From IMG/VR virus record IMGVR_UViG_3300015360_000025: 64,000 nt of DNA; one strand, given 5' to 3'. This DNA is from a virus. Below, piece after piece: positions 7,922-30,740 of the stretch; positions within the stretch are counted from its first letter, which is position 1, and each line of letters opens with the position of its first letter. Both the position numbers and the translations under genes were made by a program. The notes beneath the pieces were generated by a model. It had not been told where the DNA came from and made no database searches. It saw nothing but the letters and a program-made list of their open reading frames with translations.

Positions 7922-9149
7922 GAAAGACAAGGAAGAGAAAGAGTCCAAGAAGGACCGAGCACCAGTCGAAAAAGAACTCGATTCCCTCAAGCTCAGCAAG
8001 CTTCTCATCGGGGAACTGAACAAGGACCAGGACAAGACGGGGAAGGTCGCCTGGTGTCTTGCCACTGACGAGGACAACCCGACCGAGGTGAAGGAATTCA
8101 TCAGCACAGGGTCGGTCCTTCTCGACTACATCATCTCCAACAGGAAGAACGGAGGGATCCCGGTAGGGAAGCTGACCGAGATCTCTGGTGAAGAGGCGTC
8201 TGGTAAGTCGCTCCTCGTCGCTCACCTCATCGCCGAGACCCAACGTCGTGGCGGCATTGCGGCGTACATCGACGTGGAGAACTCGGCTAACCCTGAGTTC
8301 ATGGTCCGCCTGGGGGTGAACATCAAGGAGATGATTTATCTTCAACCACAGACCGTCGAGGAGGTCGGAGAGATGATCGAGAAGATCATCATCATGACAC
8401 GTACCCGTGCTCCAGACAAGCTGGTGCTCATCGCCTGGGACTCCATCGCGGCGACCCCATGCAAGTGCGAGATCGAGGGAGACTTCGAGATAGGCATGGA
8501 TCTGCAGCTGGCCAAGTCGAAGGTGCTCGCGAAGATGATGCGGAAGATCACCGAGACGCTTGGCAAGGAGCGGATCGCTCTGGTCTTCACGAACCAGTTA
8601 AAGACCAAGATCGGCGTCATGTACGGTGACCCGATGACTACCCCGGGTGGGAAGGCTGTCCCATACCATTCGTCTGTTCGTATCCGCCTGAACGGTGGTG
8701 CAAAGCAAAAGGACGACAAGACAGAGCAGATTTACGGGGTTCACACGACCGCCAAGATCGTGAAGAACCGCATGGGCCCACCGTGGCGTAAGTGCGAGTT
8801 CGACATCCTCTTCGCCTCAGGGATCGACGACGAGAGCTCATGGTTGCAGCGCCTTCACGAGTGCGAAGAGGTGTTCAAACAGGGCGGATGGTGTTACCTT
8901 TCCTCCTTCCCATCCGGGAAGATCCAGGAGAAGGGCGTTCACGCCGGCAAGGACCTCGGCATTTCTTTCCAGGAGAGCGGCTGGACAGAGATCCTCAAGA
9001 GACCGGAGGTCAGGAAGTGCGTCCTCGGTTTGCTGGAGAAACACATGATCGTCCGCTACGGCGAGAAGCCGAAGGATGTCCTACTCGATCCGGAATCTCT
9101 AATGGATTCAGAAGCCGTGCAGGAGGCGGTCGTCAATGGCGACATTTGA
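7914..9149 (+). CDS. recA: RecA/UvsX recombinase
   Basis: FISTGS, GKLTEISGEEASGKS (Walker A), IAWDS, FTNQ, TTPGGKAVPYHSSVRI; start moved to ATG 7914 after AGGAGG. Confidence 0.95.
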   Translation: MAKKDKEEKESKKDRAPVEKELDSLKLSKLLIGELNKDQDKTGKVAWCLATDEDNPTEVKEFISTGSVLLDYIISNRKNGGIPVGKLTEISGEEASGKSLLVAHLIAETQRRGGIAAYIDVENSANPEFMVRLGVNIKEMIYLQPQTVEEVGEMIEKIIIMTRTRAPDKLVLIAWDSIAATPCKCEIEGDFEIGMDLQLAKSKVLAKMMRKITETLGKERIALVFTNQLKTKIGVMYGDPMTTPGGKAVPYHSSVRIRLNGGAKQKDDKTEQIYGVHTTAKIVKNRMGPPWRKCEFDILFASGIDDESSWLQRLHECEEVFKQGGWCYLSSFPSGKIQEKGVHAGKDLGISFQESGWTEILKRPEVRKCVLGLLEKHMIVRYGEKPKDVLLDPESLMDSEAVQEAVVNGDI

Positions 9150-13315: not shown

Positions 13316-16036
13316 ATGACCACGGAAATCTACGAGCCGGCTGGCTTTGCGCTGGAGATATTCAAGAAGAGGTACGCCAGACACGAGAATGAAAGCTGGC
13401 AGGAGGCATGCGATCGTGTGGCTTCCCACATGGCTGCAGCCGAAACGAACGGTCACGTCGCCGAGTACAAAGAACTCTTCAGTGACATCCTGAAGAAGAA
13501 TCTCTTCTTTCCTGGCGGACGAATCTGGTACGGATCTGGCAGACCGAAAGCCCAACTCCTGAACTGTTTTGTCATACCTACGAAGGATAGTCGCGAAGGT
13601 TGGGGAAAAACACTCCACGACACTGTGGTGATTTCAGGAACTGGAGGAGGAGTCGGTTGTAACTACTCTCCCACCCGTCCGAGAAACTCAAAGATTGAAG
13701 GGACCGGAGGAATAGCGACCGGTGCCGTCAGTGAAATGCGGATGGTGAATAGCATCGGAGACGAGCTCAAGGCTGGAGGTGGTCGCCGTATCGCTCTGAT
13801 GATGGCTCTGAACCTGACGCACGGAGACATCCTAGAGTTCCTCGACGCCAAGCTCGACAAGAACCAGCTGAACAACGCCAATGTCAGTGTCATCTTCGAT
13901 GAGGATCCAGAGCGTTTCTTCAAGTTGGTCAAAGAGGAAGGTATCCTCGAACTCAAGCATAACGGCAAAGTCGTTGGCTCCGCTTCGGCCAAAGAGCTCT
14001 GGCACAAGATCGTCAGCAACGCGCTGAAGGGTGGTGAGCCAGGCCTTCTGAATGGCTACCTCGCCAACAAGATGTCAAACATCTGGTACTTCAGACCACT
14101 CATCTGTACGAATCCGTGTATCACCGGTGACACTCTTATCGCCGTCGCGGACGGGAGAAATGCCGTCAGCATCAAACAGCTCGCTGACGAAGGCAATAAC
14201 GTCCCTGTCTACTCGACGAATGTCGAGACCGGGCAGGTCGAAATCAAGACCGGGCGGAACCCTAGAAAGACCGGCGCGTCGAAAGAAGTCTGGAAACTCA
14301 CGCTTGATGACGGTTCTATTCTCCGAGCGACACCGAATCACAAGATTATGAGACTTGACAGACAGTATGTCGAGCTGAAAGACCTGAAGCCCGGAGACAG
14401 TGTGTTCCCGTTTAACACGTTCAGTTCGAACGGCTACAGACAGGTTTGTGGTACGGGTGCACAGATGTCAGGAGGAGCTCGCAGGAATCGTAGGCAGTAC
14501 AGACTGATTAACGAGTTCTTCAACGGGCCGACGGACGCGAAACGCTTCGCTATCCATCACGCCAACTTCGACTGTACTGACGATAGCATCGATAACTTGA
14601 AGATGTTGGAACACGAAGAACACCGGCGTCTTCACACCGAGAAGATGATGGGAGCGAAGAACCAATATCATCGAATGGACGAGCAGTGGAAGAATGACTT
14701 CGCTTCTCACCCCGGAGAAGAGAACGGTCGTTTTTCGGGACACACGAACGAGGAACTTGTCGTCGAAGGACGTGAGGTCTTCGAAAAGAACGGGAAGTTG
14801 ACGCAGGAACTCTGGGTCGAGCACGCGGAGAACAAGGGTCTTCCACAGTTTCTCGGCAACGACTTCCGATTTGGGTCATTCACGAATTTCAGGAACCAGG
14901 TCGTGACCAATCACCGGGTCGTCTCTGTCGAGTTTGACTGTCACGAAGATGTCTACAACATCACCGTCGATGACAATCACAACTACCATGTCGTCACTAG
15001 CGGAGACGGCGAAAAGAACGTCGTGTCTTCTGGTCTCTGCGTCAAGAATTGCGGGGAGATCTGGCTGGTCGAGTACGACTGCTGTGACCTCGGTTCGCTC
15101 GTGCTTCCTCGGTTCATCTACAATGATGGTGGTAAGCTGAAGATCGATCGTCCTCTTATGAAGAGGGTCATCAGCATCGCGATCAGATTTCTCGACAACG
15201 TCCTGACCGCGAACAACTACCCGATGCTTGAGATCAAGGAGATGTGTTCCATGATCCGTAGAATCGGTCTTGGTGTCACCGGACTTGACACGATGCTGAT
15301 GGAGTTAGGGCTGAAGTACAACTCTTCCGAAGCTCTCGAGTACGTCGACAGCTTGATGAACTTCATCAAGAACTGCGCCTACGAGGCAGGTATCGAGCTC
15401 GCCAAAGAGAAGGGAAGCTTCCCGGCATTCGACGCCGAGAAGTTCCTGCAGAGTGGATTCATGAAGACCATGAAGCCTTCTATCAGGAGTGACATCCGAA
15501 AGCACGGGATCAGGTTCTGCGCTGGCCTTACCTTACCACCTGTCGGTACAGGTTCGATGGTCTGCAACGTCGACAGCGGGATCGAGAAGGCCTTCGGTCC
15601 GGCATGGAACCGCTGCTTCCGAGATGGGGACAACCTCAAGAATGAGATCGTTATCCATCCAATCTTCAAGAGGAAGTATCTTGCTGGAGAAGATGTCTCT
15701 CACTTCCAGACCGTCTGGGACCTGAGCATGCGTGACCATTTCGAGATGCAACGGGTCTGCCAGAAGCACATCGACAACGCGGTTAGTAAGACGATCAACC
15801 TCCCTCCAGGAACGTCCATCCAGGAGCTCTCAGAACTCTACATGGAGTTCTTCCCTGATCTCAAGGGTGTGACCGTGTACCCCGAGGGCAGCCGAGAGAA
15901 CCAACCAATCACTCCACTCTCTGTTGCCGACGCAATCGCCCACATCGATGCCGAGGTAGCCGCAGGTCCAACCAGCGACGACTCGTGCCGTGGTGGGGTT
16001 TGTGATGTCCCGTGGGCCAAAGATGTGGTAAAATAA
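13316..16036 (+). CDS. nrdJ: Class II (B12-dependent) ribonucleotide reductase with intein
   Basis: PGGRI, LNCFV, TNP|CGE interrupted, GLGVTG, IDNAVSKTINLP, C-terminal CxxxxC; no small subunit nearby. Confidence 0.88.
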   Translation: MTTEIYEPAGFALEIFKKRYARHENESWQEACDRVASHMAAAETNGHVAEYKELFSDILKKNLFFPGGRIWYGSGRPKAQLLNCFVIPTKDSREGWGKTLHDTVVISGTGGGVGCNYSPTRPRNSKIEGTGGIATGAVSEMRMVNSIGDELKAGGGRRIALMMALNLTHGDILEFLDAKLDKNQLNNANVSVIFDEDPERFFKLVKEEGILELKHNGKVVGSASAKELWHKIVSNALKGGEPGLLNGYLANKMSNIWYFRPLICTNPCITGDTLIAVADGRNAVSIKQLADEGNNVPVYSTNVETGQVEIKTGRNPRKTGASKEVWKLTLDDGSILRATPNHKIMRLDRQYVELKDLKPGDSVFPFNTFSSNGYRQVCGTGAQMSGGARRNRRQYRLINEFFNGPTDAKRFAIHHANFDCTDDSIDNLKMLEHEEHRRLHTEKMMGAKNQYHRMDEQWKNDFASHPGEENGRFSGHTNEELVVEGREVFEKNGKLTQELWVEHAENKGLPQFLGNDFRFGSFTNFRNQVVTNHRVVSVEFDCHEDVYNITVDDNHNYHVVTSGDGEKNVVSSGLCVKNCGEIWLVEYDCCDLGSLVLPRFIYNDGGKLKIDRPLMKRVISIAIRFLDNVLTANNYPMLEIKEMCSMIRRIGLGVTGLDTMLMELGLKYNSSEALEYVDSLMNFIKNCAYEAGIELAKEKGSFPAFDAEKFLQSGFMKTMKPSIRSDIRKHGIRFCAGLTLPPVGTGSMVCNVDSGIEKAFGPAWNRCFRDGDNLKNEIVIHPIFKRKYLAGEDVSHFQTVWDLSMRDHFEMQRVCQKHIDNAVSKTINLPPGTSIQELSELYMEFFPDLKGVTVYPEGSRENQPITPLSVADAIAHIDAEVAAGPTSDDSCRGGVCDVPWAKDVVK
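14117..15049 (+). mobile_element. Intein (311 aa) with HNH endonuclease in nrdJ
   Basis: Starts CITGDT, block B ATPNHK, HHANFD...DNL...EHRRLH (HNH), block F DVYNITVDDNHNY, ends VKN before CGEI. Confidence 0.92.
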
Positions 16037-16311: not shown

Positions 16312-17223
16312 TTGATGTTACCGAGACCAGATAAAATAGAAGACACGATTCTTGTGACTCACATGGGGTGTATGGATGGATCGGGGGCGATGATTATGTT
16401 CGTCCGGGCTGGTGGTAAAAAGGAAAATGTCCACTTCGTTGCCGCCGGGATGCTTGAAAGGTTCATCAAGAACGATCTCGACGGCTTCAAGGGCAAGTTC
16501 GTCATCTTCGCAGACATCGGTCTCGCTGGTGACAAGGGATCAAAATACGCAGATATTCTTGAGAAGCGCGGGAACTGTGTCCTGATTGATCATCATGTTA
16601 CCTCTACTCACATGAAGGGCAAAGAGTGGTGCGACATTAGAATGGAGTCGTGCGGTACTGAGCTCCTCCGTCAATACTTGAAGCTTGAAGACGAGAGTTC
16701 GAAGGCCATGGCCGCGCTCATCCAGGATCACGACCTCTGGCTCCGGAATGACCCACGGTCGGTCGACCTGGCCGCCTTCACCGTGTTCGTTGGGCAGGAC
16801 ATATTCGTCGAGAGGTTCATGGATCGGGACGTGACGAAGGAGTTCTTCACTCCTCTTGAGACGGAGATGATGGCGATCATGATCCGGCGACGAGACCAGT
16901 TCATCGCCGCAGCAATCAGAAAGGTGATCGTGAAGGATGTCATCTGGGGAGATACGGATGAGAAGCTTGCCAAGGTCGGATACATTATCTCTCCAGAGAT
17001 GAATGTCTCCCTTCTCCTTGACACACTCCTGATCGAGAAACCAGAGCTTGACATCGGATGTCAGATCAACTTCGAGAAGGGGTCGGTTAGTCTGCGATCT
17101 AATCGCGGGTACGATGTGTCCGAGTTCGCTGAATACTACGGCGGTGGTGGTCACAAGGCAGCGTCGGGTCACAAAATCGCAGATGAGATCATGAAAGGAA
17201 TATTCGAGGAAATCCATGGCTGA
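16312..17223 (+). CDS. DHH/DHHA1 phosphoesterase (NrnB-like oligoribonuclease)
   Basis: THMGCMDG, FADI, LIDHH, SLRS, GGGHKAASG. Confidence 0.88.
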   Translation: MMLPRPDKIEDTILVTHMGCMDGSGAMIMFVRAGGKKENVHFVAAGMLERFIKNDLDGFKGKFVIFADIGLAGDKGSKYADILEKRGNCVLIDHHVTSTHMKGKEWCDIRMESCGTELLRQYLKLEDESSKAMAALIQDHDLWLRNDPRSVDLAAFTVFVGQDIFVERFMDRDVTKEFFTPLETEMMAIMIRRRDQFIAAAIRKVIVKDVIWGDTDEKLAKVGYIISPEMNVSLLLDTLLIEKPELDIGCQINFEKGSVSLRSNRGYDVSEFAEYYGGGGHKAASGHKIADEIMKGIFEEIHG

Positions 17224-18178
17224 GCATTGCATTGTTGGTAACAACTTCGATGACATCTATCGAGACCTGCTTCACGATCTCTCCTGGTCCCCGCAGTACA
17301 TTTGCAGTCCTAGGGGGCAGAAGATAAATGAGAACCTTGCTGTCACTCTTGTTCTGAATGATCCCAGGGCCCGCCTTCTCAGTTGTCAGAAGAGGAACAC
17401 AAACTACGGGTTCGCGGTCGGCGAGTTCCTCTGGTACTGGAACGGGAAGCAGGACCTCGAGACGATGCTGTACTACAACAAGAGGATGAAGGACTACTCT
17501 GACGATGGAAAGACCCTCAACTCAGCTTATGGGTTCAGACTCAAGGGGAGATTTGTTGGAGACGGATGTCCTTACATGAGCCAATGGGATGTGGCAAAAA
17601 AGACACTTCTTAGTGATTCTGATTCACGGAGATGTGTACTTCACATCAATGAACCCGAAGACCAGCATGATGCCGTTTCCGAAGGATCGAAGGATGTCCC
17701 ATGTACCCTCTCCCTCCAGTTCTTCATTCGTAACAATCGACTCGACCTTCATGTGCATATGCGATCCAATGACGTGATGTGGGGACTGACCTACGATCTC
17801 TTCAGCTTCACTCTCTTTCAGGAATGCATGATGCTTGAACTTCGGAAGGAAGAGAAGTTCAAAGACTTGCAGCTTGGAAGGTATTATCACACCGCTGGTT
17901 CTCTCCATGTCTACGAACAACACTTTCAGCAGGCGATGGACATTGTCAACGAGTATGCCACCTCCATCGTCTACAAGATGCCAATGGAACCGTTCGAAAG
18001 CCTCGAGGACTTCGATAGATTAGGTGACATTGAACAAGCATTGAGGACTGGACTGAGTACGAAGATCGTCTCGAACAACCTCATAGCTGGATTGTGTGAA
18101 TCTGCTGAGTGGATGGGAGACAAACTTCTTGATCATCGTGAAAAACGTGACAAGGAAGCTTTGAAGAAGATTGAGTAA
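17216..18178 (+). CDS. Thymidylate-synthase-fold enzyme, probably dCMP 5-hydroxymethyl(or methyl)transferase
   Basis: GEFLWY, NSAYG, DSRR, DVPC, MRSNDVMWGLTYD with Asp at the ThyA Asn position, GSLHVY. Confidence 0.75.
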   Translation: MAEHCIVGNNFDDIYRDLLHDLSWSPQYICSPRGQKINENLAVTLVLNDPRARLLSCQKRNTNYGFAVGEFLWYWNGKQDLETMLYYNKRMKDYSDDGKTLNSAYGFRLKGRFVGDGCPYMSQWDVAKKTLLSDSDSRRCVLHINEPEDQHDAVSEGSKDVPCTLSLQFFIRNNRLDLHVHMRSNDVMWGLTYDLFSFTLFQECMMLELRKEEKFKDLQLGRYYHTAGSLHVYEQHFQQAMDIVNEYATSIVYKMPMEPFESLEDFDRLGDIEQALRTGLSTKIVSNNLIAGLCESAEWMGDKLLDHREKRDKEALKKIE

Positions 18179-18777: not shown

Positions 18778-19149
18778 ATGGCCGACCAAGACATGTTCGA
18801 AGACATCTTCGAACGACAGACACGTTTCATGGAAGAACTGCGAACCAGCGACAAGCTTCCAGAGTACCCGGTCGACCTGACGACCAAACCGGGACAACGT
18901 CTCATCAAGGAGACGATCTTCAACATGATCGAGGAGCTGGCGGAAGCCAGCTTCACCCTGAAGAACAGGATCCACCGTGTAACCGACGTCCGCGTGCTTG
19001 ACATCCAGCACTACAAAGAGGAGCTAGGCGACGCCATGGCCTACCTCATTGAGGTGTGCATCCTCTCAGGGTTCACACCACAAGAGATCTACGAGGAGTA
19101 CAAACGCAAGAACGCAGTCGTCTCTGAACGGCTGAAGAACGGGTACTGA
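18778..19149 (+). CDS. All-alpha NTP pyrophosphatase (MazG / dimeric dUTPase / dCTPase-like)
   Basis: MIEELAEA...YKEELGDAMAY...YKRKN. Confidence 0.8.
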   Translation: MADQDMFEDIFERQTRFMEELRTSDKLPEYPVDLTTKPGQRLIKETIFNMIEELAEASFTLKNRIHRVTDVRVLDIQHYKEELGDAMAYLIEVCILSGFTPQEIYEEYKRKNAVVSERLKNGY

Positions 19150-20461: not shown

Positions 20462-23368
20462 ATGATCAAGGACTTCGCCAGCTTTCACAACCACAGTCAC
20501 TTCTCCGTAATGGATGGTATCAGCCTTCCTGAGGAGATGATCAAGACTGCTAAGGCGAAGGGGTTAAAGTCCATTGCGATTACAGACCACGGGCACTGTC
20601 ACGGTCATGCCGACTTCTTCCTGTTCGGGAAGAAGCACGGCGTCCGTACTGTGTTCGGAGTCGAGGCTTACGTTATCCACGACTTGAAGGAGTGGCAGGA
20701 CCTCAAGGACTCAGCCGGCTTCGAGGACACACAGGAACGGGACTCCAACACTGCCGGTGATGACGAGGGGAAGAAACTCTCGAAGCAACTCTACCGTAAG
20801 GGACACCTAGTCCTCCTGGCGTGCAACAGGGAGGGTTTGGCGAACCTGTACCAGCTGACTTACAAGGCCCACAAGGATGGGTTTTACGCCAAACCCAGGA
20901 TGGACAAGAAGATGCTGGCCCAACATTCTAAGGGCGTCATCGCGACGTCTGCATGCATGGGCGGTGTCATCGCCAACAAGTGCTGGGACCTGAAGAACGG
21001 ACGAGGAGACTTCCAAGACATAGTCAACGAGGCGAAGGAGTTCGACGAGATCTTTGGCCGAGGACGTTTCTTCCTGGAACTCCAGTTCAACGAACACGAC
21101 GGACAAAGGTTCATCAACGAATTGCTTGTACGAGTTCACAAAGAGACAGGGATCCCGCTGACCGTAACTACCGACTCTCACTACACTCAGCCAGAAGAGT
21201 GGAAGGCTCAAGAGCTCCTCTACATGCTCCGGTCCAATAAGACCGTGACGACGCGTGGGGACAAGTGGGACTTCCAGGTCAAGCAGCTCTACATCAAATC
21301 TCCCGAAGAGATGTGGCAGACGTTTGAGAAGTTCGGCGGGATGCTTGAACCGAAGATCGCGCTTGAAGCATTCCAGAACACGATGCTCATCGACAGTCTG
21401 GTCGACGACTACGAGCCAGACACACACAAGCGACTACCTTCCCTTCCGTACGAAGACCCGTTCATGGAGATGATGGCTCGGGCCGTGAAGGGGCTCAAGG
21501 CCCACGGTCTGGCGCAGAAGGACGAGTACAAGACCCGTCTCCTTCACGAGATGAAGATTATCAAGGAGAAGGGGTTCGCCAACTACTTCCTCATCACCCA
21601 GCAGATCATCGAAGAGGCGCGCAAGACCATGATGGTCGGAGAGGGCCGTGGTTCGTCCGCGGCGTCACTCGTCTGCTACTGCTTGGGGATAACCGACCTT
21701 GATCCCATCGAACACGACCTGCTATTCGAGCGCTTCATGGACCCATCCAGAACTGAGGAGCCCGACATCGACATTGATTTTGAGGACGTTGAAGCGACTA
21801 AGGACATGCTTCGCCGAATGTTCGGCGAACAGAATGTAGCGTGTCTTTCCTCGTATGGTACCTTTCAGATCAAGGGTCTTCTGAAAGATGTTGGCCGGGT
21901 TTATGACCTGCCTGTTAAGGTCGTCAACGACGCCAACAAGAAGATCGAGAAAGAACTAAAGGTCCTCTACCTAAACCAGGACAAGAGCACCCTCGTCATC
22001 AAGTTGGAAGACGTGCAAAGAGTCAGTCAGACATTCCGAGAGCTGGTTGAGAAGTATCCGCTGGTAGGTGAGCACCTGACCAAACTTTACGGACGCAACC
22101 GACATTGCAGTCGACACGCCGCAGGTGTCATCATCGGCGATAACCTCCCGGCCGAGACTGCATTGTGGGTCCAAAAAGACAAAGATACGGGGAAGCAGAT
22201 CGTCCAGGCGTCCTTCACTGAAGGCATCGTCAACAAGAATGTCTCGGCGATGGGCTTCACCAAGTTCGACATCCTCTCCATCGCCACACTCAAGGTGATA
22301 CACTATGCCCTCAAGCTAATCTCCGAGAGGACCGGACGTCCAATAACGGAACTCCGAGAGATGGTCCGTTCGAAGAACATGAAGTTGAATGACCCGAAGA
22401 TCATGGAGCACTGCTTCTGGAACGGGAACTTTGCCGGGGTCTTCCAGTTCACTGAAAAGGGGATTCGACGTGTGGCGAAGAACGTCCATCCCGATACCTT
22501 TGTCGACATCTCAGCCATCTCTTCCATCTACCGTCCAGGTCCATTGGCTGGCGGCTTTGACAAACTCTACGCTCACAACAAACACCATCCTGAAGATGTG
22601 ACCTACGAGCATCCGCTGCTTGAGTCAATTCTGAAGAAGACACGTGGTTGTATCGTGTTCCAAGAACAGCTGATGCAGATCTGCAACTCTCTGGGCAAGA
22701 TGTCGTGGAAAGACGTGAATGCCGTACGCAAGGTTCTACTGAAGAAGGACAAGAGCAAGACAGAAGAGTTCCTTAAGTCAGAGAACGAACGTCTCGCCGG
22801 ACTGTTCTACAAGGGGTGCGAAGAGAACGGCTACCCTCGATACATTGTGACCGGGACTGAAAAGAAGAAGGACGAGAAGGGTGAAGAGAAGGAAGTTGAG
22901 ATCAGAATTCCGAAGGCGGAGAAGCTCTGGAATGACCTGCTTGCGTTCGGTGGCTACGGATTCAACAAAAGTTTGCACTTTGCTCAACGAATTGCTATTT
23001 ATAGTAACGGGAACGTAATCTCTAAGGAAATCAAGGACGTACAAAAAGGTGATTTAGCATTTTCTCGTGATGAAAAAAGCGGCAAAATATTTTTAGAACC
23101 AATCGTTGCTCTTCATGACCACGGAGAACTTGAGTTAATAGAATTTACGATGGATGATGGGAGTACTGTGCGATGCACGGCAAATCACAAGTTCAGGACG
23201 ACGACCGGAGAGATGTCACGAATCTCAGAGATTATGGCCAGAGACTTGGAGATCGTCTCGTTTGCAGACTTTGCGCCACTAGTGTCAGATCAGCTTCTCA
23301 TTGGGAAGCAGGACGTTGTAAACAAGCTCATGTCTGTAAATGTGGAGCAGAGTTCATCGGAACGATAG
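20462..23368 (+). CDS. dnaE: DNA polymerase III alpha, N-terminal part + split intein N-half
   Basis: PHP HNHSHFSVMDG, GRGSSAAS, PDIDIDF, KFDIL, FQF, YRPGP, IVFQEQ, GYGFNK followed by intein. Confidence 0.95.
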   Translation: MIKDFASFHNHSHFSVMDGISLPEEMIKTAKAKGLKSIAITDHGHCHGHADFFLFGKKHGVRTVFGVEAYVIHDLKEWQDLKDSAGFEDTQERDSNTAGDDEGKKLSKQLYRKGHLVLLACNREGLANLYQLTYKAHKDGFYAKPRMDKKMLAQHSKGVIATSACMGGVIANKCWDLKNGRGDFQDIVNEAKEFDEIFGRGRFFLELQFNEHDGQRFINELLVRVHKETGIPLTVTTDSHYTQPEEWKAQELLYMLRSNKTVTTRGDKWDFQVKQLYIKSPEEMWQTFEKFGGMLEPKIALEAFQNTMLIDSLVDDYEPDTHKRLPSLPYEDPFMEMMARAVKGLKAHGLAQKDEYKTRLLHEMKIIKEKGFANYFLITQQIIEEARKTMMVGEGRGSSAASLVCYCLGITDLDPIEHDLLFERFMDPSRTEEPDIDIDFEDVEATKDMLRRMFGEQNVACLSSYGTFQIKGLLKDVGRVYDLPVKVVNDANKKIEKELKVLYLNQDKSTLVIKLEDVQRVSQTFRELVEKYPLVGEHLTKLYGRNRHCSRHAAGVIIGDNLPAETALWVQKDKDTGKQIVQASFTEGIVNKNVSAMGFTKFDILSIATLKVIHYALKLISERTGRPITELREMVRSKNMKLNDPKIMEHCFWNGNFAGVFQFTEKGIRRVAKNVHPDTFVDISAISSIYRPGPLAGGFDKLYAHNKHHPEDVTYEHPLLESILKKTRGCIVFQEQLMQICNSLGKMSWKDVNAVRKVLLKKDKSKTEEFLKSENERLAGLFYKGCEENGYPRYIVTGTEKKKDEKGEEKEVEIRIPKAEKLWNDLLAFGGYGFNKSLHFAQRIAIYSNGNVISKEIKDVQKGDLAFSRDEKSGKIFLEPIVALHDHGELELIEFTMDDGSTVRCTANHKFRTTTGEMSRISEIMARDLEIVSFADFAPLVSDQLLIGKQDVVNKLMSVNVEQSSSER
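22970..23365 (+). mobile_element. Split intein N-half (132 aa, Ser1)
   Basis: SLHFAQRI block A, VRCTANHKF block B, then stop codon. Confidence 0.88.
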
Positions 23369-24156
23369 GTATTAATTCTGATTTTAAGTCTCATAAGAAG
23401 ACGTGCGAAATTTACAGTTCTTGGCGAAATGAAACAAACATTAAAAACGGACGGCGCGGTTACGCTTCCATAGTCGAGCGCGGTGAAGTTGAGGTGTGGA
23501 AAGAAAAGATTGGGAAGGCTGTCAGTAAAACTATTGTCTCAAATCCACAAGAGATAATGAGGCGTCAGGAATTGAGTAAGACGACAATAACGGCTTGGGC
23601 AGTATCAAAAGAGGGACGAAGAAAATCGTCAGAGACTGCGATTAAGACATCTGCTAGACCCGAAATACAGAAAGTTAGAGCTACTGTCTTGAAAAGATGG
23701 AGAGACGAGAACCCCGAGGAATTCTACCAGAAATCAATCGTTGCTATGCACACAGTATTCGTCTCCAAGCCACAGGTAAGACTCTCAGAAGAATGTAAAA
23801 AAATTGACGATGGTTTCAAACATAACCAGCAGATTAAAAATCTTGAATTCACAAATAAAACGCACAGACGTCAATTAGATGTTTTACATGCCGAAAAGAA
23901 AATTGTCGTAGAATTTGACGGACCCGTTCACTTCAAGAAATTTAGAAAGAATCAAGATCTAGAGAAAACAAAGAGGCACGATGAAGAGATGAACGAGGTA
24001 CTTTCGCGTATTGGTTATGCCGTTGTTCGTATTTCCTACGAAGATTATGATCATCGACGTGGTGGATCTTTTTCAGCCCGCGCATTGAATGTGATAAGAT
24101 CTCTAGTGGAGAAACAAAACCCAGGCATATACAAGATTGGGGGTGCATATTCCTAA
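23173..24156 (+). CDS. Free-standing Vsr/DUF559-like homing endonuclease between the intein halves
   Basis: LDV...VVEFDGPVHF...GYAVVRI; AT-rich; different frame, overlapping both dnaE parts; true start uncertain. Confidence 0.8.
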   Translation: MHGKSQVQDDDRRDVTNLRDYGQRLGDRLVCRLCATSVRSASHWEAGRCKQAHVCKCGAEFIGTIGINSDFKSHKKTCEIYSSWRNETNIKNGRRGYASIVERGEVEVWKEKIGKAVSKTIVSNPQEIMRRQELSKTTITAWAVSKEGRRKSSETAIKTSARPEIQKVRATVLKRWRDENPEEFYQKSIVAMHTVFVSKPQVRLSEECKKIDDGFKHNQQIKNLEFTNKTHRRQLDVLHAEKKIVVEFDGPVHFKKFRKNQDLEKTKRHDEEMNEVLSRIGYAVVRISYEDYDHRRGGSFSARALNVIRSLVEKQNPGIYKIGGAYS

Positions 24157-24259
24157 GATAATTTCAGCTAAAAACATAGGCAAGCATCAGACATTCGATA
24201 TCGAGCTCGCTCACGAAGACCATCAGTTTTTTCTGGAAAACGGTTTGTTGACATCAAAC
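24137..24259 (+). mobile_element. Split intein C-half (about 41 aa)
   Basis: Blocks F/G ending TSN before Ser+1; TTG (or GTG 24143) start. Confidence 0.88.
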
Positions 24260-25258
24260 TCACACTCTGACGCATACTCAGTTATGACCATGCAGTGTGC
24301 GTTCCTGGCCACCTATTATCCTCGGGAGTTTTACGCCGCCCTACTTACCAAGGGGCAGTCCGGGGACCTTCAACAGTACGTTAGCGATATCCAACGCACG
24401 GGCATCAAAATCCTTCCGGTCAGCATCAATTCCAGCCAGGGTACACACGTGATCGACGGGAACACCATCCGGCTCGCATTGAACTCCGTACCAGGAGTTG
24501 GACAGTCGGCCGTCGAAAAGATCATGGCACACCAGCCGTATAGTGATTTCCACGACTATATCCGAAGATCTGGTGTTGGAAAGACGGCCACGGCCCCTCT
24601 CATCCTTGCTGGCGCGTTCGACTGCGTCTATCCAAACATGAAGGACCTCGACATAAACTACGCGTACTACAACGAGTTTCCAGATTACAAGAGGAAGACG
24701 CGAGCCAAAAATAAGCCAGACGCCAAGTGTTGGGACGATTGGATCAAATTCTTCGATGAGGAGAACATGAGCGAAGACTACACTCTAGCTGAGAAGGTCG
24801 GACACGAGAACGAACTTTTCGACTTTTCTCTCCGTGGTTCCCCATTTGAGATCCTCGATAGGATGGACAAGATCGAGAAGTATCTCGCCGAGAAGGCTGG
24901 TGAGCTTACCGTTATTCACTACGATCTCGACTACGTCCAGGCGATCAAGAGCAAAGTCGAAGTGATTTGTATTCCAGTGACAATCAGAAGAATCTTCGAG
25001 AAGCCACAGCGTAACGGTCAGATGTTCTCGTTCCTTACGTTCTCAACGTTTGACGAAGTGGAATTCGATGCCCCCTGCTTCTCTACAATATGGAAATGGA
25101 TCAAGCCAATCACCAAGAAGGGGACGGTGTACATGGCTGTCTTTAACAGAAAGCTTGGAGAAGAAGCGGAGAACCTGGTAGTCGGAAGACCGGGCTTCAG
25201 TCACTCTGGTGCATCATCCTTAAAGTACATGTTCGACGTGGATCAGATCAAACTTTGA
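24137..25258 (+). CDS. dnaE: Split intein C-half + DNA polymerase III alpha C-terminal part
   Basis: TFDIEL...HQFFLENGLLTSN|SHSDAY...YYPREFYAALL, ILPVSIN, VPGVG HhH. Confidence 0.92.
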   Translation: MGVHIPKIISAKNIGKHQTFDIELAHEDHQFFLENGLLTSNSHSDAYSVMTMQCAFLATYYPREFYAALLTKGQSGDLQQYVSDIQRTGIKILPVSINSSQGTHVIDGNTIRLALNSVPGVGQSAVEKIMAHQPYSDFHDYIRRSGVGKTATAPLILAGAFDCVYPNMKDLDINYAYYNEFPDYKRKTRAKNKPDAKCWDDWIKFFDEENMSEDYTLAEKVGHENELFDFSLRGSPFEILDRMDKIEKYLAEKAGELTVIHYDLDYVQAIKSKVEVICIPVTIRRIFEKPQRNGQMFSFLTFSTFDEVEFDAPCFSTIWKWIKPITKKGTVYMAVFNRKLGEEAENLVVGRPGFSHSGASSLKYMFDVDQIKL

Positions 25259-25515
25259 CAGGAGAGAACTCGATGATCAAGATCCATTGGTGGGAAGATG
25301 CGCAGGGTCGTTATACTTGTCACAAGAACGATCGTGGACTCTCATTCAAAGAGAGCTTTCTCGGCGAACTAAAACGCGGTAGTGGTGCACCCGAAACATG
25401 GTATTTCATCATCGCCAATACTGATGACGTTGTCGGTCCATTCAAACACATGGGAGCAGCGAGGCGAGCTCTCGAGGCCGCTGTGGGTGGTGAACCCATA
25501 ACTACTTGGGACTGA
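25255..25515 (+). CDS. Hypothetical protein
   Basis: Short coupled ORF. Confidence 0.55.
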   Translation: MTGENSMIKIHWWEDAQGRYTCHKNDRGLSFKESFLGELKRGSGAPETWYFIIANTDDVVGPFKHMGAARRALEAAVGGEPITTWD

Positions 25516-25523
25516 GAGGAAAC

Positions 25524-26621
25524 ATGGCCAACGATATCTGCTTAGTAATTCCGACGATCAGGGAAAATTCTTTTAACGACTTCGTGAAGCGCTGGAGCGC
25601 GATTGGTCTGTTCGAGCATACTGACCTGCTCATCATGGAGGACAATCCGACCAAGACCTTCGACATCCAGAACAGCGTCAGCAACGGGATCCCCTGTACG
25701 TTGGGTCACTTTGCCTGGGACTCCATCGCCAAGAGCCTGGGAGATGAAGAGTGGATCATCCCCCGACGGTCAGACACGGTCCGCAGCTTCGGGTACCTCG
25801 AAGCATACCGTCGAGGGTACAAGTTCATTCTTACCCTGGATGACGATTGCTACCCGACGGGGGAGGAGGATGGTGTCACCTACACTGGCGCTGGATTCCT
25901 CGGCGATCACCTCAAGCAGATCACTAAGCGTTCCCGGTGGTTCAACACACTAAATTCAGTGAAGCCACGTGGAATTCCGTTCTACAACGTCGGAGTCCAG
26001 AAAGAAGTAATCGTGAACCATGGTCTCTGGACGAAGGTTCTTGACTACGACGCTCCTTTCCAACTCGCCAATCCGATTCCTGAGCAGTATTCGTTTGACA
26101 ATCGCATCATTCCTTCAGGACTCTACTTCCCGATGTGCGGCATGAATGTCATGTGGAAGGCCGAAGCTACGGTCCTCATGTATCATCTCCTTATGGGGAG
26201 GCGGAAGGCGATGCTGGACAACGTCCCGGGAGCGGACGAGCATGACCTCGTGAAGCTGCCCTTCGATCGCTTCGGTGACATCTGGTGTGGCATCCTGATG
26301 AAGAAGGTAGCCGATCACCTCGGGAAGTTGGTGTCCACTGGCATGCCATACATTAGGCACGAGCGCGCATCCAATCCATTCACCAATCTGAAGAAAGAAG
26401 CGAATGGGATCGAGGTCAACGAAGACCTGTGGCAGTTCATAGATGACATGGATCTCACGGGGACAGAGAAGGGAGTAAGCCCATATGTGTCTGCCTACAC
26501 GAGGATCGGTCTCTATATGAAAGAGTTCACGTCTCTTTATCCAAAGTACAAGGAACATGAGGAGTACTTCAAGTTACTGAGTCTGGCGATGGTTACATGG
26601 GCAGATCTGTTTAAGGAGTGA
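25524..26621 (+). CDS. RGP / GT75 family protein (UDP-arabinopyranose mutase-like)
   Basis: VIPTIR, TLDDDC, PRGIPF (conserved Arg), NHGLW...DYDAP, FPMCGMN, RFGDIWCG, TGMPYIRHERASNPFTNLKKE. Confidence 0.88.
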   Translation: MANDICLVIPTIRENSFNDFVKRWSAIGLFEHTDLLIMEDNPTKTFDIQNSVSNGIPCTLGHFAWDSIAKSLGDEEWIIPRRSDTVRSFGYLEAYRRGYKFILTLDDDCYPTGEEDGVTYTGAGFLGDHLKQITKRSRWFNTLNSVKPRGIPFYNVGVQKEVIVNHGLWTKVLDYDAPFQLANPIPEQYSFDNRIIPSGLYFPMCGMNVMWKAEATVLMYHLLMGRRKAMLDNVPGADEHDLVKLPFDRFGDIWCGILMKKVADHLGKLVSTGMPYIRHERASNPFTNLKKEANGIEVNEDLWQFIDDMDLTGTEKGVSPYVSAYTRIGLYMKEFTSLYPKYKEHEEYFKLLSLAMVTWADLFKE

Positions 26622-27799
26622 TTGTGAACCACGTTTGTCAAATATGCGGACAAGCTTTTCGTAGGCCTGGATCACGACCTGTCGCAACATGCGGTAAATC
26701 ATGTCGTGGCATTTCGCTTTCGAGAAAAATGAGCGGAAACGGAAATCCGATGTTCGATAAGGTAGGTTCAGATCATCCGAAATTTGGAAAGAGAGGAAAT
26801 TCTCTGCCGTCTGGGTGGAAACATTCGAGTGAGACCAAGACAAAGCTTCGTGAGTCTTGGCTTAAACGTACGAAAAATGGGACCGTTCTCGGCAATTTGA
26901 AGTTCAAGATGGGAGAATACATATCTAAAAAAACTGGCCGCCGCGAAATATTCCATTCATCTTACGAGAAGACGAGGATGGAGTTTTTGGACATGTCACA
27001 AGATGTCATTGACTGGACGAAGCAACACGGCATCTCTATACCGTACGAATTTCGGGACGCAGAGCATCTATACATTCCTGATTTCCTTGTAACGTGGATG
27101 GACGGCCAAAAGACATTAGAAGAAATAAAAGGCTTCGTCAAGGATCAGAAGCAGCTTTTCGCAAAGAATATGGCTGCTGTCTCATACGCAGAAGACAACG
27201 GCTTGATATTCCGTCTTCTCCAAAAAAGAGACCTTGTCTCTCCAAAGAAGCATCGTGTATTTTTTCTCGAAGGACCAGACAATTGTGGGAAATCACATAT
27301 TGGGCGCGGACTTTCGCAACATCTGACGATTCCTTATTTCAGGTTTTCGCGACAGCACGAGATGTGGACCAAGAACCAATTTAAGACTGCACTAGAGTTT
27401 GATCAGCCTTTACTTGTTTCGTTCTTGGGACAGACGAAATCTGATGTAATTGTAGATCGCGGATATGCATCAGAATTTGTTTACTCAAAGGTCTTCGGGA
27501 GAGAGACAAATCGAAAAGTACTTGAATATGTAGACAAAAAATTTTCAGAATTGGGAGCCGTATTCCTCATCTTTCTACGTCGTGATTATTCGAAGAATGG
27601 CGGCGACGTCGTCGTCCCAGACGAGAAATTGTTGGAGCTCCACGAAGAATATCTGAAGTTTGTCGATTGGACGAGGTGCTCGTGTATCGTGATGTATGTC
27701 GATGATCTTGGTAATGACCTAAAGCTTCAAGTAGTTTCGTTGCAGTCAGCCATGGACATGGTCGATCTCTCTGTTGGAAAAAATATCATCTTCACATGA
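26618..27799 (+). CDS. Fusion: NUMOD3/TnsA-like endonuclease + dNMP (thymidylate-kinase-like) kinase
   Basis: N-terminal CxxC, GWKHSSETKTKL, FHSSYE...YIPDF...EEIKG; C-terminal EGPDNCGKS P-loop, IVDRGYASEFVY. Confidence 0.8.
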   Translation: MIVNHVCQICGQAFRRPGSRPVATCGKSCRGISLSRKMSGNGNPMFDKVGSDHPKFGKRGNSLPSGWKHSSETKTKLRESWLKRTKNGTVLGNLKFKMGEYISKKTGRREIFHSSYEKTRMEFLDMSQDVIDWTKQHGISIPYEFRDAEHLYIPDFLVTWMDGQKTLEEIKGFVKDQKQLFAKNMAAVSYAEDNGLIFRLLQKRDLVSPKKHRVFFLEGPDNCGKSHIGRGLSQHLTIPYFRFSRQHEMWTKNQFKTALEFDQPLLVSFLGQTKSDVIVDRGYASEFVYSKVFGRETNRKVLEYVDKKFSELGAVFLIFLRRDYSKNGGDVVVPDEKLLELHEEYLKFVDWTRCSCIVMYVDDLGNDLKLQVVSLQSAMDMVDLSVGKNIIFT

Positions 27800-28251
27800 A
27801 GAAAGAGAACGCCATCTACTTCCAGAGCAAGGGGTATCAAGAGTTTCGTTTCATGAGTAACTTTTACGCTGCACCGTTCAGCGTTGGACCAGCTTTGTAT
27901 CCAACTGTCGAGCACTACTACCAAGCATCGAAGGCGACCAATATGGACGACTTCAGGCATGTCATGGCTGCCACGACACCAGGCGAAGCAATGAGACGTG
28001 GGCGATCAATCCAGACTCCGCTATCCTGGGAACACATGAAGATCGAAGTCATGACACGTGCATGTCGAATGAAATTCGAGCAGAATACTGACCTCAAAGA
28101 GATGTTGCTAGCTACGGAAGGATTCGAGCTGGTGGAGTACGCTCCCTGGGGCGATACATTTTGGGGAGTAGGGAAGGACTACGTAGGACAGAACAACTTG
28201 GGAATCATCCTGATGCAAGTCAGGACCGAACTGAAAGAGAGGACAAAATGA
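27796..28251 (+). CDS. NADAR (YbiA-like) protein
   Basis: FMSNF, YPTVEHYYQA, KFEQN, LLAT, DTFWG, GQNNLG..LM.VR. Confidence 0.92.
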   Translation: MKKENAIYFQSKGYQEFRFMSNFYAAPFSVGPALYPTVEHYYQASKATNMDDFRHVMAATTPGEAMRRGRSIQTPLSWEHMKIEVMTRACRMKFEQNTDLKEMLLATEGFELVEYAPWGDTFWGVGKDYVGQNNLGIILMQVRTELKERTK

Positions 28252-28652
28252 AGAAGATTCGAACCGTAGACGTGAGCACACTGTTCAAGCTGGCGGAGGG
28301 ATTCCTGAATAACAGGACCAAGACCCACCGTGTCACTGGTAACTTCGGCCTGTTCAGGGCCATGATTTCCTTGTTCCTAGGGAGGGTCGCCTTGTATTTG
28401 ACGACTATTGCTTTCAGAATCCTTCCGAAAGAGCAACCTCTCAAGCTCCCGGATACCCTGGTCCGTCCAGCGCTCGTCGAGATGGCAACCGAAAAGCTGC
28501 CAGATCGCAAGGTCGACAACCTCGGGTCGTACGGACCAGCCATTTACGCTCCCGTCACCCCTGGACGGTATGCTGGGGTACGAACAGAAGATGTGATTCA
28601 GACAGACATAGCCGAGATGAATAAGGGCTTCGGGACCACTGGTAAGAAATGA
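28248..28652 (+). CDS. Hypothetical protein
   Basis: ATG 28248 with GAGG RBS, coupled at both ends. Confidence 0.6.
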   Translation: MKKIRTVDVSTLFKLAEGFLNNRTKTHRVTGNFGLFRAMISLFLGRVALYLTTIAFRILPKEQPLKLPDTLVRPALVEMATEKLPDRKVDNLGSYGPAIYAPVTPGRYAGVRTEDVIQTDIAEMNKGFGTTGKK

Positions 28653-29758
28653 GGATCGGCTACTCCTACTGGGGATTTCTCGGTGACCGCAAGCTGGGTG
28701 CCGATGGGAAGGAGATCTCTGCTCCAGACGGGAACGCCACATACTCGTGGAGCTTGATCTGGGAGATGCAGAGGCGTGGTCACACGGTCCTGGCAATGCA
28801 AGAGGACCGTGACTACCAGGCATGGAAGATGTGGGGGACCTTGAACTTCGAAGCATTCTCCCAGATGAAGCGGACCGAGGCGTACACAAACCTCAAGCAT
28901 ACGTTCGGCTCATCGGAGATCCTACCTAAGTTGGACATCCTGCTCGTCGAGTGGAGGTTCCCGATCCCAGGTCGAAACTGCAGTGAGTCTGATGGGACGA
29001 CGTACTCGTACAACGAGAACGAGCATCAGCCAGATTATCATCGCCAGATGCAGATGCTCCTTCACTACAAGACGAAGGGGACTAAGATTATATTCTGGGA
29101 TCTCGACCACAAGCTCACAGAGCACGATGAACGTCACTGGAATCCGGACGCCATCTTCGAAACATCCGTAACCCCTCTGAAGCTCTTCAAGGAGCGGACC
29201 AGGGTAGAACCACCCTTCATCATCTCTGATCTCATGCAGCATCCCACACTCCCTCCAGACCACAGTCGTAAGTTGGTTTACATCGGTAGCCGATACGAGA
29301 GGGACGACGTTATTGATGAATGGATCAAACCTGCTTCACTGAGATACCCGGGAGAGATTGAGTTTCACGGGAAGTGGGATGACGAGGCGAAGGCACGTTG
29401 GCCGCAGGTTAAGATGGAGAAGCGTTGCGCAGTCGTCGATTTCCGCCAGATCTATGGGACGGCCGGGGCGTGCCCACTGCTGGCGAAGAGGAGTTACCTC
29501 GAATCGGGATTCATCACGCCACGTCCTTGGGAGGCGTTGCTCTTTGGAACAATCCCCATTGGTCTGAGTTCGATGAAGGGAATCGAACAGTACGTGACAT
29601 TCGTCGCTCAGGATTCGCTAGATATGATTGACCTAGCAGATACACTGATCGATAACGGTGTCGAGTACAGGGACGAAATGCGCCGAGCCAACGTAGAAAA
29701 GCTGGAGTTCATGGATGCTCGACACTTTGTGGACAAGGTTGAAAATGTCGCTGGTTGA
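28649..29758 (+). CDS. GT-B glycosyltransferase, T4 beta-glucosyltransferase-like (candidate DNA glycosyltransferase)
   Basis: KLVYIGSR, IEFHG, SYLESGFITPRPWEA, RDEM resemble BGT DVIYGGS/IEFFG/NFITLRVWET/RKEM (BGT recalled from memory). Confidence 0.7.
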   Translation: MRIGYSYWGFLGDRKLGADGKEISAPDGNATYSWSLIWEMQRRGHTVLAMQEDRDYQAWKMWGTLNFEAFSQMKRTEAYTNLKHTFGSSEILPKLDILLVEWRFPIPGRNCSESDGTTYSYNENEHQPDYHRQMQMLLHYKTKGTKIIFWDLDHKLTEHDERHWNPDAIFETSVTPLKLFKERTRVEPPFIISDLMQHPTLPPDHSRKLVYIGSRYERDDVIDEWIKPASLRYPGEIEFHGKWDDEAKARWPQVKMEKRCAVVDFRQIYGTAGACPLLAKRSYLESGFITPRPWEALLFGTIPIGLSSMKGIEQYVTFVAQDSLDMIDLADTLIDNGVEYRDEMRRANVEKLEFMDARHFVDKVENVAG

Positions 29759-30104: not shown

Positions 30105-30310
30105 TAATGTTTGAACTCGTGGCAGCAGCTACCGCTTTCGCAGGTCTGTTAATCTTCGTCAGGCTCGTCGGTTCCGCGAGGAAGCGTCGCCGAGAACAGA
30201 CGGACGATGAGGTAGACTTCGACGATTGGAAGAAAGGTTCTCCAAACGATCCGCTTCCACCCGGCGCCGTACCCGTCAAGCAAACAGGTATCAAAGATGA
30301 ATCGTCCTAG
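30101..30310 (+). CDS. Small membrane protein
   Basis: N-terminal TM helix. Confidence 0.55.
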   Translation: MIMFELVAAATAFAGLLIFVRLVGSARKRRREQTDDEVDFDDWKKGSPNDPLPPGAVPVKQTGIKDESS

Positions 30311-30740
30311 CTTCGACAATGTCTACATGAATCTCGCTCTCATGTTGGCGGCGAGGAGCACGTGTTCCCGCCTCCATGTGGGATGTGTCGTCGTATCAGG
30401 TGACAATCAACGTGTACTCGCGATCGGTTATAACGGATCGTACCGTGGTGGACCGAACGGTTGTGACTCGTCTGAACCTGGCAACTGCGGGTGTTTACAC
30501 GCCGAGGACAACTCTCTAATAAAGATGAACTACAATGATCCCGCAGAGAAGAAACTTTACACAACGATCATGCCCTGCGTCTATTGCGCTAAACGGATCG
30601 TAAATGCCGGAGTCGGAGAAGTTATCTATCTCTATGCGTACAGGAAAACGGAAGGTCTCCAAGTCCTCGCGTCGGCGGGCGTCAAAGTCCGGCAGCTCGC
30701 GCCGGGGGACATACTGTTCGTCGAAGACCGGAAAGACTGA
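30297..30740 (+). CDS. dCMP deaminase (ComEB-like)
   Basis: STCSRLHVGCV, GYNG, HAEDN, PCVYC. Confidence 0.92.
   Translation: MNRPSFDNVYMNLALMLAARSTCSRLHVGCVVVSGDNQRVLAIGYNGSYRGGPNGCDSSEPGNCGCLHAEDNSLIKMNYNDPAEKKLYTTIMPCVYCAKRIVNAGVGEVIYLYAYRKTEGLQVLASAGVKVRQLAPGDILFVEDRKD

Follow-up and report, generated by a model that had tools for sequence, protein, structure and literature searches.

A 64,000-nucleotide stretch of DNA from an uncultured phage of about 190 kb (IMG/VR record IMGVR_UViG_3300015360_000025), referred to here as the window, carries on its plus strand, at 25524..26621, a gene for a 365-residue protein of the GT75 (RGP) family, which we call P0001. We propose that P0001 is probably a metal-dependent, flavin-independent mutase that converts a nucleoside diphosphate (NDP) sugar from the pyranose to the furanose form, and that it feeds a DNA glycosyltransferase in a T4-style pathway of cytosine hypermodification. 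P0001 belongs to GT75 by sequence and by fold, its catalytic residues are conserved, its gene keeps its place in a syntenic module, and in a sister lineage of phages GT75 is replaced by an unrelated mutase, Glf. From the evidence described below we infer the enzymatic activity of P0001, its acceptor and the identity of its sugar.

The open reading frame (ORF) of P0001 runs without interruption for 365 codons from an ATG at 25524 to a TGA at 26619-26621, and the opposite strand contains many stop codons. A GAGGA Shine-Dalgarno sequence is located 5 nt upstream of the ATG, which itself lies 9 nt past the stop of an upstream ORF of 86 codons, and the GTG with which the next gene begins overlaps the terminal TGA. 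The longer form that begins at TTG 25506 would overlap the preceding stop codon and is probably not the true one. A first-pass annotation, made from the letters of the sequence alone, had assigned this gene to the RGP/GT75 family on the basis of a series of motifs. All of these are present in the translation: DDD at residues 106-108, PRGIPF at 148-153, HGLWTKVLDYDAP at 166-178, FPMCGMN at 202-208, DIWCG at 252-256 and TGMPYIRHERASNPFTNLKKE at 272-292. The Pfam hidden Markov model for RGP (PF03214) matches P0001 with 130.6 bits against a cut-off of 23.8 (E 9.9e-38) over positions 4-338 of the 342 in the model, which as a sequence match is far beyond chance. Significant sequence matches in the PDB were confined to the rice UAM protein OsUAM2 and to MtdL. 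The latter, from the A201A pathway of Marinactinospora thermotolerans, is together with Hyg20 a GT75 mutase that interconverts the pyranose and furanose forms of GDP-L-galactose and GDP-L-fucose (PDB 7XPR, 7YUA; PMC9937993).

An AlphaFold model of P0001 built on 25 homologues (pLDDT 83.6, pTM 0.86) led to the same family. With Foldseek the top matches were MtdL entries (E 1e-16 to 1e-17, TM-score 0.66), OsUAM2 (8cid) aligned with a TM-score of 0.70-0.74, and the next matches were generic GT-A enzymes at E 1e-5 and a TM-score of 0.35. The predicted structure appears to contain a GT-A-like N-terminal domain, the GT75-specific core and a C-terminal helical domain, the parts by which the GT75 fold would be recognized. 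Profile search, PDB sequence search, fold search and the residue mapping given below thus all bear out the membership of P0001 in RGP/GT75. Neither PHROGs nor NCBIfam holds a model that matches the protein. Among 50,697 phage records a search at the DNA level returned nothing, and a protein search returned only one relative, from the uncultured 595-kb phage LR756511 (37.7% identity), in which GT75 stands in an unrelated context; no cultured relative was found in these searches.

The structural study of MtdL names residues whose mutation kills mutase activity in MtdL or in the plant protein AtRGP2 (PMC9937993), and these were mapped onto P0001 from HMMER alignments. The nucleophile, the autoglycosylated Arg159 of MtdL, falls on R149, so that the first-pass annotation was correct in stating that the catalytic arginine is retained. 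With roles as given for MtdL (PMC9937993), the remaining correspondences are D87 with D84 (sugar-binding site, where D87N and D87S abolish activity), R90 with R87 (contact to the ribose via water), D109-D111 with D106-D108 (the DDD motif for metal and nucleotide), D195 with D174 (catalytic Asp), R257 with R249 (beta-phosphate and sugar), D260 with D252 (general base), H287 with H279 (Mn2+ ligand) and R289 with R281 (diphosphate). The full mapped set is invariant in all 33 phage homologues and nearly invariant in 55 cellular homologues, R149 being invariant in both groups. As judged from these alignments, P0001 carries the complete known catalytic set of GT75 mutases.

The same residues bear on whether P0001 might be an inactive protein with a regulatory or scaffolding role, like the plant class-2 RGPs AtRGP5 and OsUAM2. 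Class-2 RGPs lack activity (PMC9937993), and the best match to P0001 by TM-score is in fact OsUAM2 (8cid), a class-2 protein. However, inactive class-2 RGPs have lost the equivalents of MtdL H287 and R257 (PMC9937993), and 8cid, when aligned with P0001, reads IDDN and has neither the His nor the Arg. H287, R257 and the full DDD all have their counterparts in P0001, where they are invariant throughout the phage clade, and no second, active GT75 paralogue for it to regulate was found alongside P0001. We therefore find an inactive P0001 scarcely credible. With H279, R249, D174 and D252 in place, it has the residues predicted for an active GT75 of the class-1 type and is apparently an active mutase.

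The positions next to sugar and base give a mixed picture. The S83-D84 pair, present in 33 of 33 phage sequences, is that of MtdL (S86-D87), whereas active plant RGPs have D-S; in AtRGP2, where the pair is D90-S91, the S91D mutant lost UDP-galactofuranose (UDP-Galf) formation (PMC9937993). The phage clade therefore lacks the plant-type Asp-Ser pair of a UDP-L-arabinopyranose mutase, and the first-pass description of P0001 as UDP-arabinopyranose mutase-like is accurate for the family and not for the substrate. Conversely, P10 and G206-M207 of P0001 are plant-like, where MtdL has T13 and, for sugar binding, S228-Q229. Among the guanine selectors of MtdL and Hyg20, S86 is thus present as S83, and T13 is replaced by P10, an equivalence based on a motif match to plant IPTIR since the N-terminus lies outside the HMMER alignment.

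The glycosyltransferase that P0001 would supply is encoded nearby. At 28649..29758 on the plus strand is the gene for P0002, a 369-residue protein of GT-B fold, predicted to be a DNA glycosyltransferase that acts on 5-hydroxymethylcytosine (5hmC) and uses a furanosyl donor. Its model (pLDDT 93.3) was matched by Foldseek to T4 alpha-glucosyltransferase (1ya6, 1xv5 and 1y8z, including DNA complexes) and to T4 beta-glucosyltransferase (1qkj) at E ~1e-9, with 11-14% identity to these T4 enzymes in the fold alignment. P0002 itself has no Pfam match, and 5 of 27 homologues match PF13524 (Glyco_trans_1_2). We infer that its acceptor is DNA. The acceptor hydroxyl would be provided by P0004, a ThyA homologue (17216..18178, plus strand) and predicted dCMP hydroxymethylase giving 5-hydroxymethyl-dCMP, whose best PDB match is the CMP hydroxymethylase MilA (E 8e-36). 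Experiments have established that an Asp at the position of N177 in ThyA homologues specifies cytosine, that an acidic residue at the position of L143 gives a hydroxymethyl product and that D169N marks a 5-hydroxy-dCMP synthase (PMC13326640). When aligned with E. coli ThyA, T4 gp42, SPO1 gp29 and the homologue of Mosigvirus HX01, P0004 keeps D169 and the catalytic Cys, C146, and has Asp at the positions of both L143 and N177; in the same alignment HX01 shows D169N and SPO1, a dUMP enzyme, keeps Asn at 177. P0004 thus bears the signature of a dCMP hydroxymethylase, which predicts 5-hydroxymethyl-C in the DNA of this phage.

Comparison with related phages provides the strongest available evidence that P0001 is a mutase that remodels a donor, rather than a second transferase. 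In a sister lineage, represented by four independent contigs (L086, L095, L097/L098 and L099), the orthologous GT-B gene precedes one for a UDP-galactopyranose mutase that depends on flavin, GLF (Pfam PF03275; E 2.9e-68 in L086, precomputed annotation in the other three), after which come genes for a kinase of ~170 residues and a ThyA homologue. The GT-B and GLF genes overlap by 4 nt in L095, L097/L098 and L099 and are separated by a 155-codon ORF in L086. The GT-B of L086 is 46% identical to P0002, and those of the other three contigs are 48-59% identical to that of L086. The ThyA homologues of the GT75 and GLF lineages share the same hydroxymethylase signature and all keep D169. Two nearly complete genomes contain GT75 and GT-B and lack GLF: G001 (196.5 kb, 96% complete), which also has the ThyA homologue, and G009 (185.5 kb, 91% complete), where the ThyA homologue is not in the fetched flank. 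G004, the record that includes L086 (61 kb, 29% complete), has GT-B, the ThyA homologue and GLF and no GT75, and G005 (L087; 45 kb, 91% complete) has GT-B and the ThyA homologue with neither mutase. GT75 and GLF were never found together among the records searched, and the less complete GT75 records likewise lack GLF. Two unrelated mutase families therefore fill one role in sister lineages, which is a non-orthologous displacement. The existence of G005 suggests further that the GT-B is the core DNA transferase and that the mutase is an optional addition. For the sister lineage, the arrangement with Glf predicts DNA that contains galactofuranosyl-5hmC. The block (9989-15636 in L086, and likewise in L095, L097/L098 and L099) also includes, ahead of the GT-B, genes for PolIII-alpha, for a protein of ~380 residues, which in L095 has a weak Glyco_trans_1_2 match, and for uracil-DNA glycosylase (UDG) or RNase T. 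A UDP-glucose dehydrogenase-like protein is encoded close by in L095.

This displacement must be set against the possibility that P0001 is itself a DNA glycosyltransferase, which would use the Arg149-bound sugar either to place the first sugar on 5hmC or to extend the sugar installed by the GT-B to a disaccharide (compare T2 and T6). GT75 proteins do have a GT-A-type N-domain and true (auto)glycosyltransferase chemistry (PMC9937993), MtdL was labelled a 'transglycosylase' by its PDB depositors, the GT75 gene sits among DNA-precursor genes with its stop overlapping the next start, and phages RB69, DLP3 and RL38J1 build oligosaccharides on their DNA with several glycosyltransferases (PMC13326640). 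Yet the sister lineage fills the same slot with Glf, a pure isomerase without transferase activity; no member of GT75 is known to have a glycosylation target besides itself, and a simple transferase would not need to retain the mutase-specific D174 and D252 in full. A transferase role is thus unlikely, and the disaccharide-adding second transferase that the first-pass annotation offered as an alternative is disfavoured by the replacement of GT75 by Glf. The narrower proposal that P0001 delivers an Arg149-bound furanose straight to 5hmC in DNA, or to the sugar placed there by the GT-B, we consider a distinctly long shot; if true, P0001 would found a new mechanistic class among DNA glycosyltransferases and would be the first of its family to act on an external acceptor. 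Protein charge was rejected as a test of DNA binding: P0001 is acidic (pI 5.6), as is the GT-B, and the clade medians are 5.7 for GT75 and 5.9 for GT-B.

The donor-supplying mutase is also consistent with the company that its gene keeps. Metagenomic clusters contain ~800 relatives of P0001 and ~500 of P0002, many of them on shared contigs, the largest of which are 185-207 kb. The order ThyA homologue, MazG, PolIII-alpha, small ORF, GT75, kinase, GT-B, deaminase is kept in 13 IMG/VR contigs and in one NCBI contig (L100), with 48-62% protein identity. A distant phage with a family-A (PolA-type) polymerase, L088, contains the deaminase, ThyA homologue, kinase, GT75, UDG and GT-B in a rearranged order. 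In the relatives examined the P0002-type GT-B is always accompanied by the ThyA homologue, whether or not a mutase is present (the flank of G009 gives no view of ThyA). The first-pass annotation had considered an RGP unexpected in a phage replication region. The window is indeed such a region, rich in nucleotide metabolism, and the placement of GT75 is accounted for by this conserved module: the ThyA homologue, MazG, kinase, deaminase and GT-B reproduce the parts list for hydroxymethylcytosine in T4, to which GT75 is the single addition.

A third reading is that P0001 supplies or transfers a furanose for something that is not DNA, perhaps virion proteins, surface glycans of the host or arginine in a host protein, and that the position of the gene reflects early expression only. 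At least 19 further IMG/VR contigs (L104-L127) do encode more distant GT75 proteins (30-40% identity) in glycan cassettes near structural genes, and the Arg-glycosyltransferases EarP and NleB have related chemistry. These cassettes point to glycosylated virion proteins or other non-DNA targets, so that phages employ GT75 in at least two settings, each alongside separate transferases. The cassettes hold GT2 (17 matches), Glyco_trans_1_2/GT1-like proteins, methyltransferases, epimerases of the short-chain dehydrogenase/reductase (SDR) type and radical SAM/B12 proteins, and they adjoin portal, capsid and terminase genes. In the 64-kb window, however, the GT75 block contains no GT2 and no membrane component, the only glycosyltransferase near the P0001 gene is P0002, which resembles the T4 glucosyltransferases, and even in the PolA-type phage L088 the GT75 gene keeps company with those for the ThyA homologue, the kinase and the GT-B. 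We therefore regard a non-DNA target for P0001 as very improbable.

If P0001 acts as a mutase that feeds P0002, the pathway may be envisioned as follows. The MazG-like enzyme and the ThyA homologue would turn the dC pool into 5-hydroxymethyl-dCMP, the adjacent deoxynucleoside monophosphate (dNMP) kinase and the host NDP kinase would yield 5-hydroxymethyl-dCTP, and the phage PolIII-alpha would build this nucleotide into DNA. Meanwhile, an NDP-pyranose from the host would bind to P0001 together with Mn2+, for which D108 and H279 would be the ligands. After losing a proton to D252, R149 would attack C1, so that the NDP leaves and a covalent Arg149-sugar intermediate is formed; the ring would open and reclose via O4 with the assistance of D252 and D174, and renewed attack by the NDP would free the NDP-furanose. 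This ring contraction through a covalent Arg-sugar is the mechanism proposed for MtdL (PMC9937993). P0002 would then use up the thermodynamically disfavoured furanose donor by transferring the furanose to the hydroxymethyl group of 5hmC in DNA, and the furanosylated 5hmC would shield the phage genome from host nucleases. As to the sugar, OsUAM1 and AtRGP2 also have UDP-galactopyranose (UDP-Galp) mutase activity (PMC9937993), which together with the displacement by Glf makes UDP-D-Galf our leading guess for the donor, followed by UDP-L-arabinofuranose (UDP-L-Araf), its analogue without C6. The MtdL-like S-D pair leaves room for GDP-L-galactofuranose and GDP-L-fucofuranose.

Several points weigh against this proposal. 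The mutase activity of the phage clade, and likewise of its cellular sister clade, is a prediction from residues, and the conserved catalytic set would also suit a transglycosylase that hands its Arg-bound sugar on to a different acceptor. The loop that bears R149 is modelled poorly, with pLDDT below 50 at residues 141-155. The specificity positions form a mosaic, MtdL-like at S83-D84 and plant-like at P10 and G206-M207, so that neither the nucleotide nor the sugar can be read from the sequence of P0001, and among 60 cellular homologues residues 83-84 fail to track the type of neighbouring gene and yield no clean substrate code. Finally, the search of the window revealed no enzyme that would make the pyranose precursor, and the genes for GDP-mannose 3,5-epimerase (GME) and NTP_transferase were searched for in the closest relatives and are absent, so that the donor must come from the host. 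One relative, G001 (L010-L012; 196.5 kb, 96% complete), does encode three SDRs (GalE-like, dTDP-glucose-dehydratase-like and heptose-epimerase-like) as well as GT4-like and heptosyltransferase-like genes. We rejected the SDRs and GT4-like genes as a source of precursor, as they are 20-100 kb from the GT75 locus and were not seen in the other relatives searched.

The wider family lends context to the proposed role of P0001. The statement of the first-pass annotation that the family is mostly plant does not hold, in view of the ~800 metagenomic relatives and of homologues with 30-43% identity in 60 species-level prokaryotic genomes, some on megabase contigs. The taxa include Planctomycetota, Chloroflexota, Acidobacteriota and Patescibacteria, and no phage genes were found adjoining the 60 cellular homologues. 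Their neighbours are GT2 glycosyltransferases (in 34 of 60 loci), SDR nucleotide-sugar enzymes, DegT aminotransferases and the exporters Wzx and Wzt, which identifies these loci as surface-glycan clusters, where a mutase that supplies a donor would be expected. Indeed, the cellular GT75 genes and those of other viruses adjoin separate glycosyltransferases (GT2, GT1) and NDP-sugar enzymes, an arrangement that fits a donor supplier. The notion that GME is the usual partner of GT75 was withdrawn, as the supposed SDR cluster proved heterogeneous: true GME orthologues occur at two cellular loci only (L038 and L043, E 2e-92 to Arabidopsis GME), other loci have UDP-glucose-4-epimerase-like neighbours, and one SDR has no strong PDB match. 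The cellular clade therefore probably spans several substrates. A contig from Paceibacterota (Patescibacteria), L037, carries two GT75 paralogues within 4 kb on opposite strands (3545-4564 and 7393-8439), which differ at positions 83-84 (T-S versus N-A).

In a maximum-likelihood tree of GT75, which is unrooted and was made without plant or MtdL sequences, the 33 phage sequences form a single clade with an SH-aLRT of 100 and a long stem. Its sister group, weakly supported (87), is a cellular clade of 44 sequences, and the copy from the huge phage LR756511 lies beside a sequence from Pirellulales. In the free tree L088 falls outside the phage clade, but the approximately unbiased test is compatible with L088 as a member of that clade (P = 0.61), and the tree makes no case for an independent acquisition of GT75 by L088.

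The other genes of the GT75 block, in which several neighbours overlap at stop and start codons, are described next. The MazG-like NTP pyrophosphohydrolase (18778..19149, plus strand; phrog_12184 and phrog_173, nucleotide pyrophosphohydrolase) is kept in all relatives and, by analogy with T4 gp56, is a candidate dCTPase that would exclude canonical dCTP from the pool. PolIII-alpha (DnaE) is split in the window into 20462-23368 and 24137-25258, and an ORF for a DUF559/Vsr-like endonuclease (23173-24156) lies between the halves and overlaps them. The polymerase is intact in relatives L001-L009 (1126-1175 residues) and split in the same way in L085, whose endonuclease is 62% identical. The small ORF of 86 codons directly 5' of GT75 (25255..25515, plus strand) has no Pfam or PHROG match, and its homologues occupy the same spot in L001, L003-L006 and L100. 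Downstream of GT75, the gene at 26618..27799 (plus strand) encodes a TnsA-like endonuclease (~residues 1-205; Pfam Tn7_TnsA-like_N, PHROG endonuclease) fused in frame to a P-loop dNMP kinase (~residues 206-393, ~27233-27799; PHROG thymidylate kinase at residues 208-302). The Zn-finger/TnsA-like module runs without a stop into the kinase, where relatives carry a kinase of 174-221 residues alone; in L086 a separate NUMOD3 endonuclease is found just 5' of the kinase. The next gene (27796..28251, plus strand) encodes a NADAR-domain protein (Pfam NADAR, E 1.6e-33), which is also present between kinase and GT-B in L100 and is absent from that spot in most relatives. It is probably outside the glycosylation chemistry and may be an anti-defence gene directed against DNA ADP-ribosylation. 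The dCMP deaminase (30297..30740, plus strand; Pfam dCMP_cyt_deam_1, E 2e-18), which is syntenic in relatives, would have the role of T4 Cd.

Elsewhere the window encodes RecA, a 5'-3' exonuclease, DnaB, ribonucleotide reductase, a DHH protein, ThyX, NT5C and DNA ligase. An intein that includes an HNH endonuclease domain interrupts the large subunit of the reductase (13316-16036), and several relatives have a shorter, intein-free version. The sole Pfam match of a 1552-residue ORF at 214-4872 is a cytidylyltransferase-like nucleotidyltransferase domain at residues 1039-1195. The genes at 50465-54171 resemble an RNA-repair system: two encode RNA ligases (50465-51040 and 50982-52082), and with them come a HAD domain of the 'Swiss army knife' RNA repair type and a UvrD-type helicase.

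It is of interest to compare P0001 with the known systems that it resembles. Like MtdL, it has the family, the fold, the DDD motif, equivalents of Arg159, Asp195, Arg257, Asp260, His287 and Arg289, the S-D pair and the motif RFGDI(W/F), and its furanosyl product would likewise be passed to a separate glycosyltransferase. P0001 has RFGDIW where the plant RGP motif is RYDDMW, which we take only as a lead. P0001 differs from MtdL in that the two are only ~21-22% identical, in having Pro for T13 and Gly-Met for S228-Q229, so that GDP specificity is not implied, and in being encoded by a phage, with DNA as its presumed final acceptor instead of an antibiotic. With the plant class-1 RGPs (OsUAM1, AtRGP1-3) it shares IPTIR, DDDC, RG(Y/I)PF, DYDAP, FPMCGMN and PYIxHxxASNPFxNLKKE. 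These proteins have D-S in place of S83-D84, are cytosolic and serve the cell wall.

The closest functional parallel is in Rhizobium phage RL38J1, which was described in a 2026 study in Nucleic Acids Research and has a ThyA homologue, DNA glycosyltransferases and a Glf mutase in a cluster for DNA hypermodification (PMC13326640). Glf, in RL38J1 and in the sister lineage described above, is like P0001 in its presumed task and in its neighbourhood of GT-B, mutase, kinase and ThyA homologue, although it has an unrelated fold and uses FAD rather than Mn2+ and an Arg nucleophile. RL38J1 moreover starts from 5-hydroxy-C (its ThyA homologue has D169N), whereas the ThyA homologues considered here keep D169 and predict 5-hydroxymethyl-C. 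The phage block resembles that of T4 (gp42, gp1, gp56, Cd and the alpha- and beta-glucosyltransferases) in its cytosine-type ThyA homologue, kinase, pyrophosphohydrolase, deaminase and AGT/BGT-like GT-B, at very low sequence identity. In T4 the UDP-glucose of the host serves directly, without an enzyme to remodel the donor, whereas in the present phage a predicted ring-contracting mutase joins the set and the replicase is a PolIII-alpha. A literature search found no report that ties RGP, GT75 or UDP-arabinopyranose mutase to phages, and it found pyranose mutase joined to phage DNA hypermodification only in the study of the RL38J1 Glf (PMC13326640). Furanosyl sugars on DNA, such as the arabinofuranose of RB69 and DLP3 (PMC13326640), and a phage-encoded mutase are thus already known in kind; what would be new is GT75 in that role on 5hmC.

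Sugar-coated cytosines are a major means of phage escape from restriction enzymes and CRISPR; they also make phages harder to engineer and to sequence. The published routes to the donor are host UDP-glucose in T4, a dedicated arabinofuranose pathway in RB69 and DLP3, and the flavoenzyme Glf in RL38J1. If our reading of P0001 is correct, widespread environmental phages of ~200 kb have recruited for this purpose an enzyme that contracts sugar rings with the help of a metal and that is otherwise familiar from plant cell walls and two antibiotic pathways, and their DNA would contain a new modification, furanosyl-hydroxymethylcytosine. The occurrence of GT75 or Glf beside orthologous transferases would then constitute a natural experiment on donor specificity, and the phage enzymes might be a source of flavin-independent catalysts for scarce NDP-furanoses. 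The proposed role would also provide the first functional context for a large, uncharacterised bacterial and viral branch of the GT75 family.

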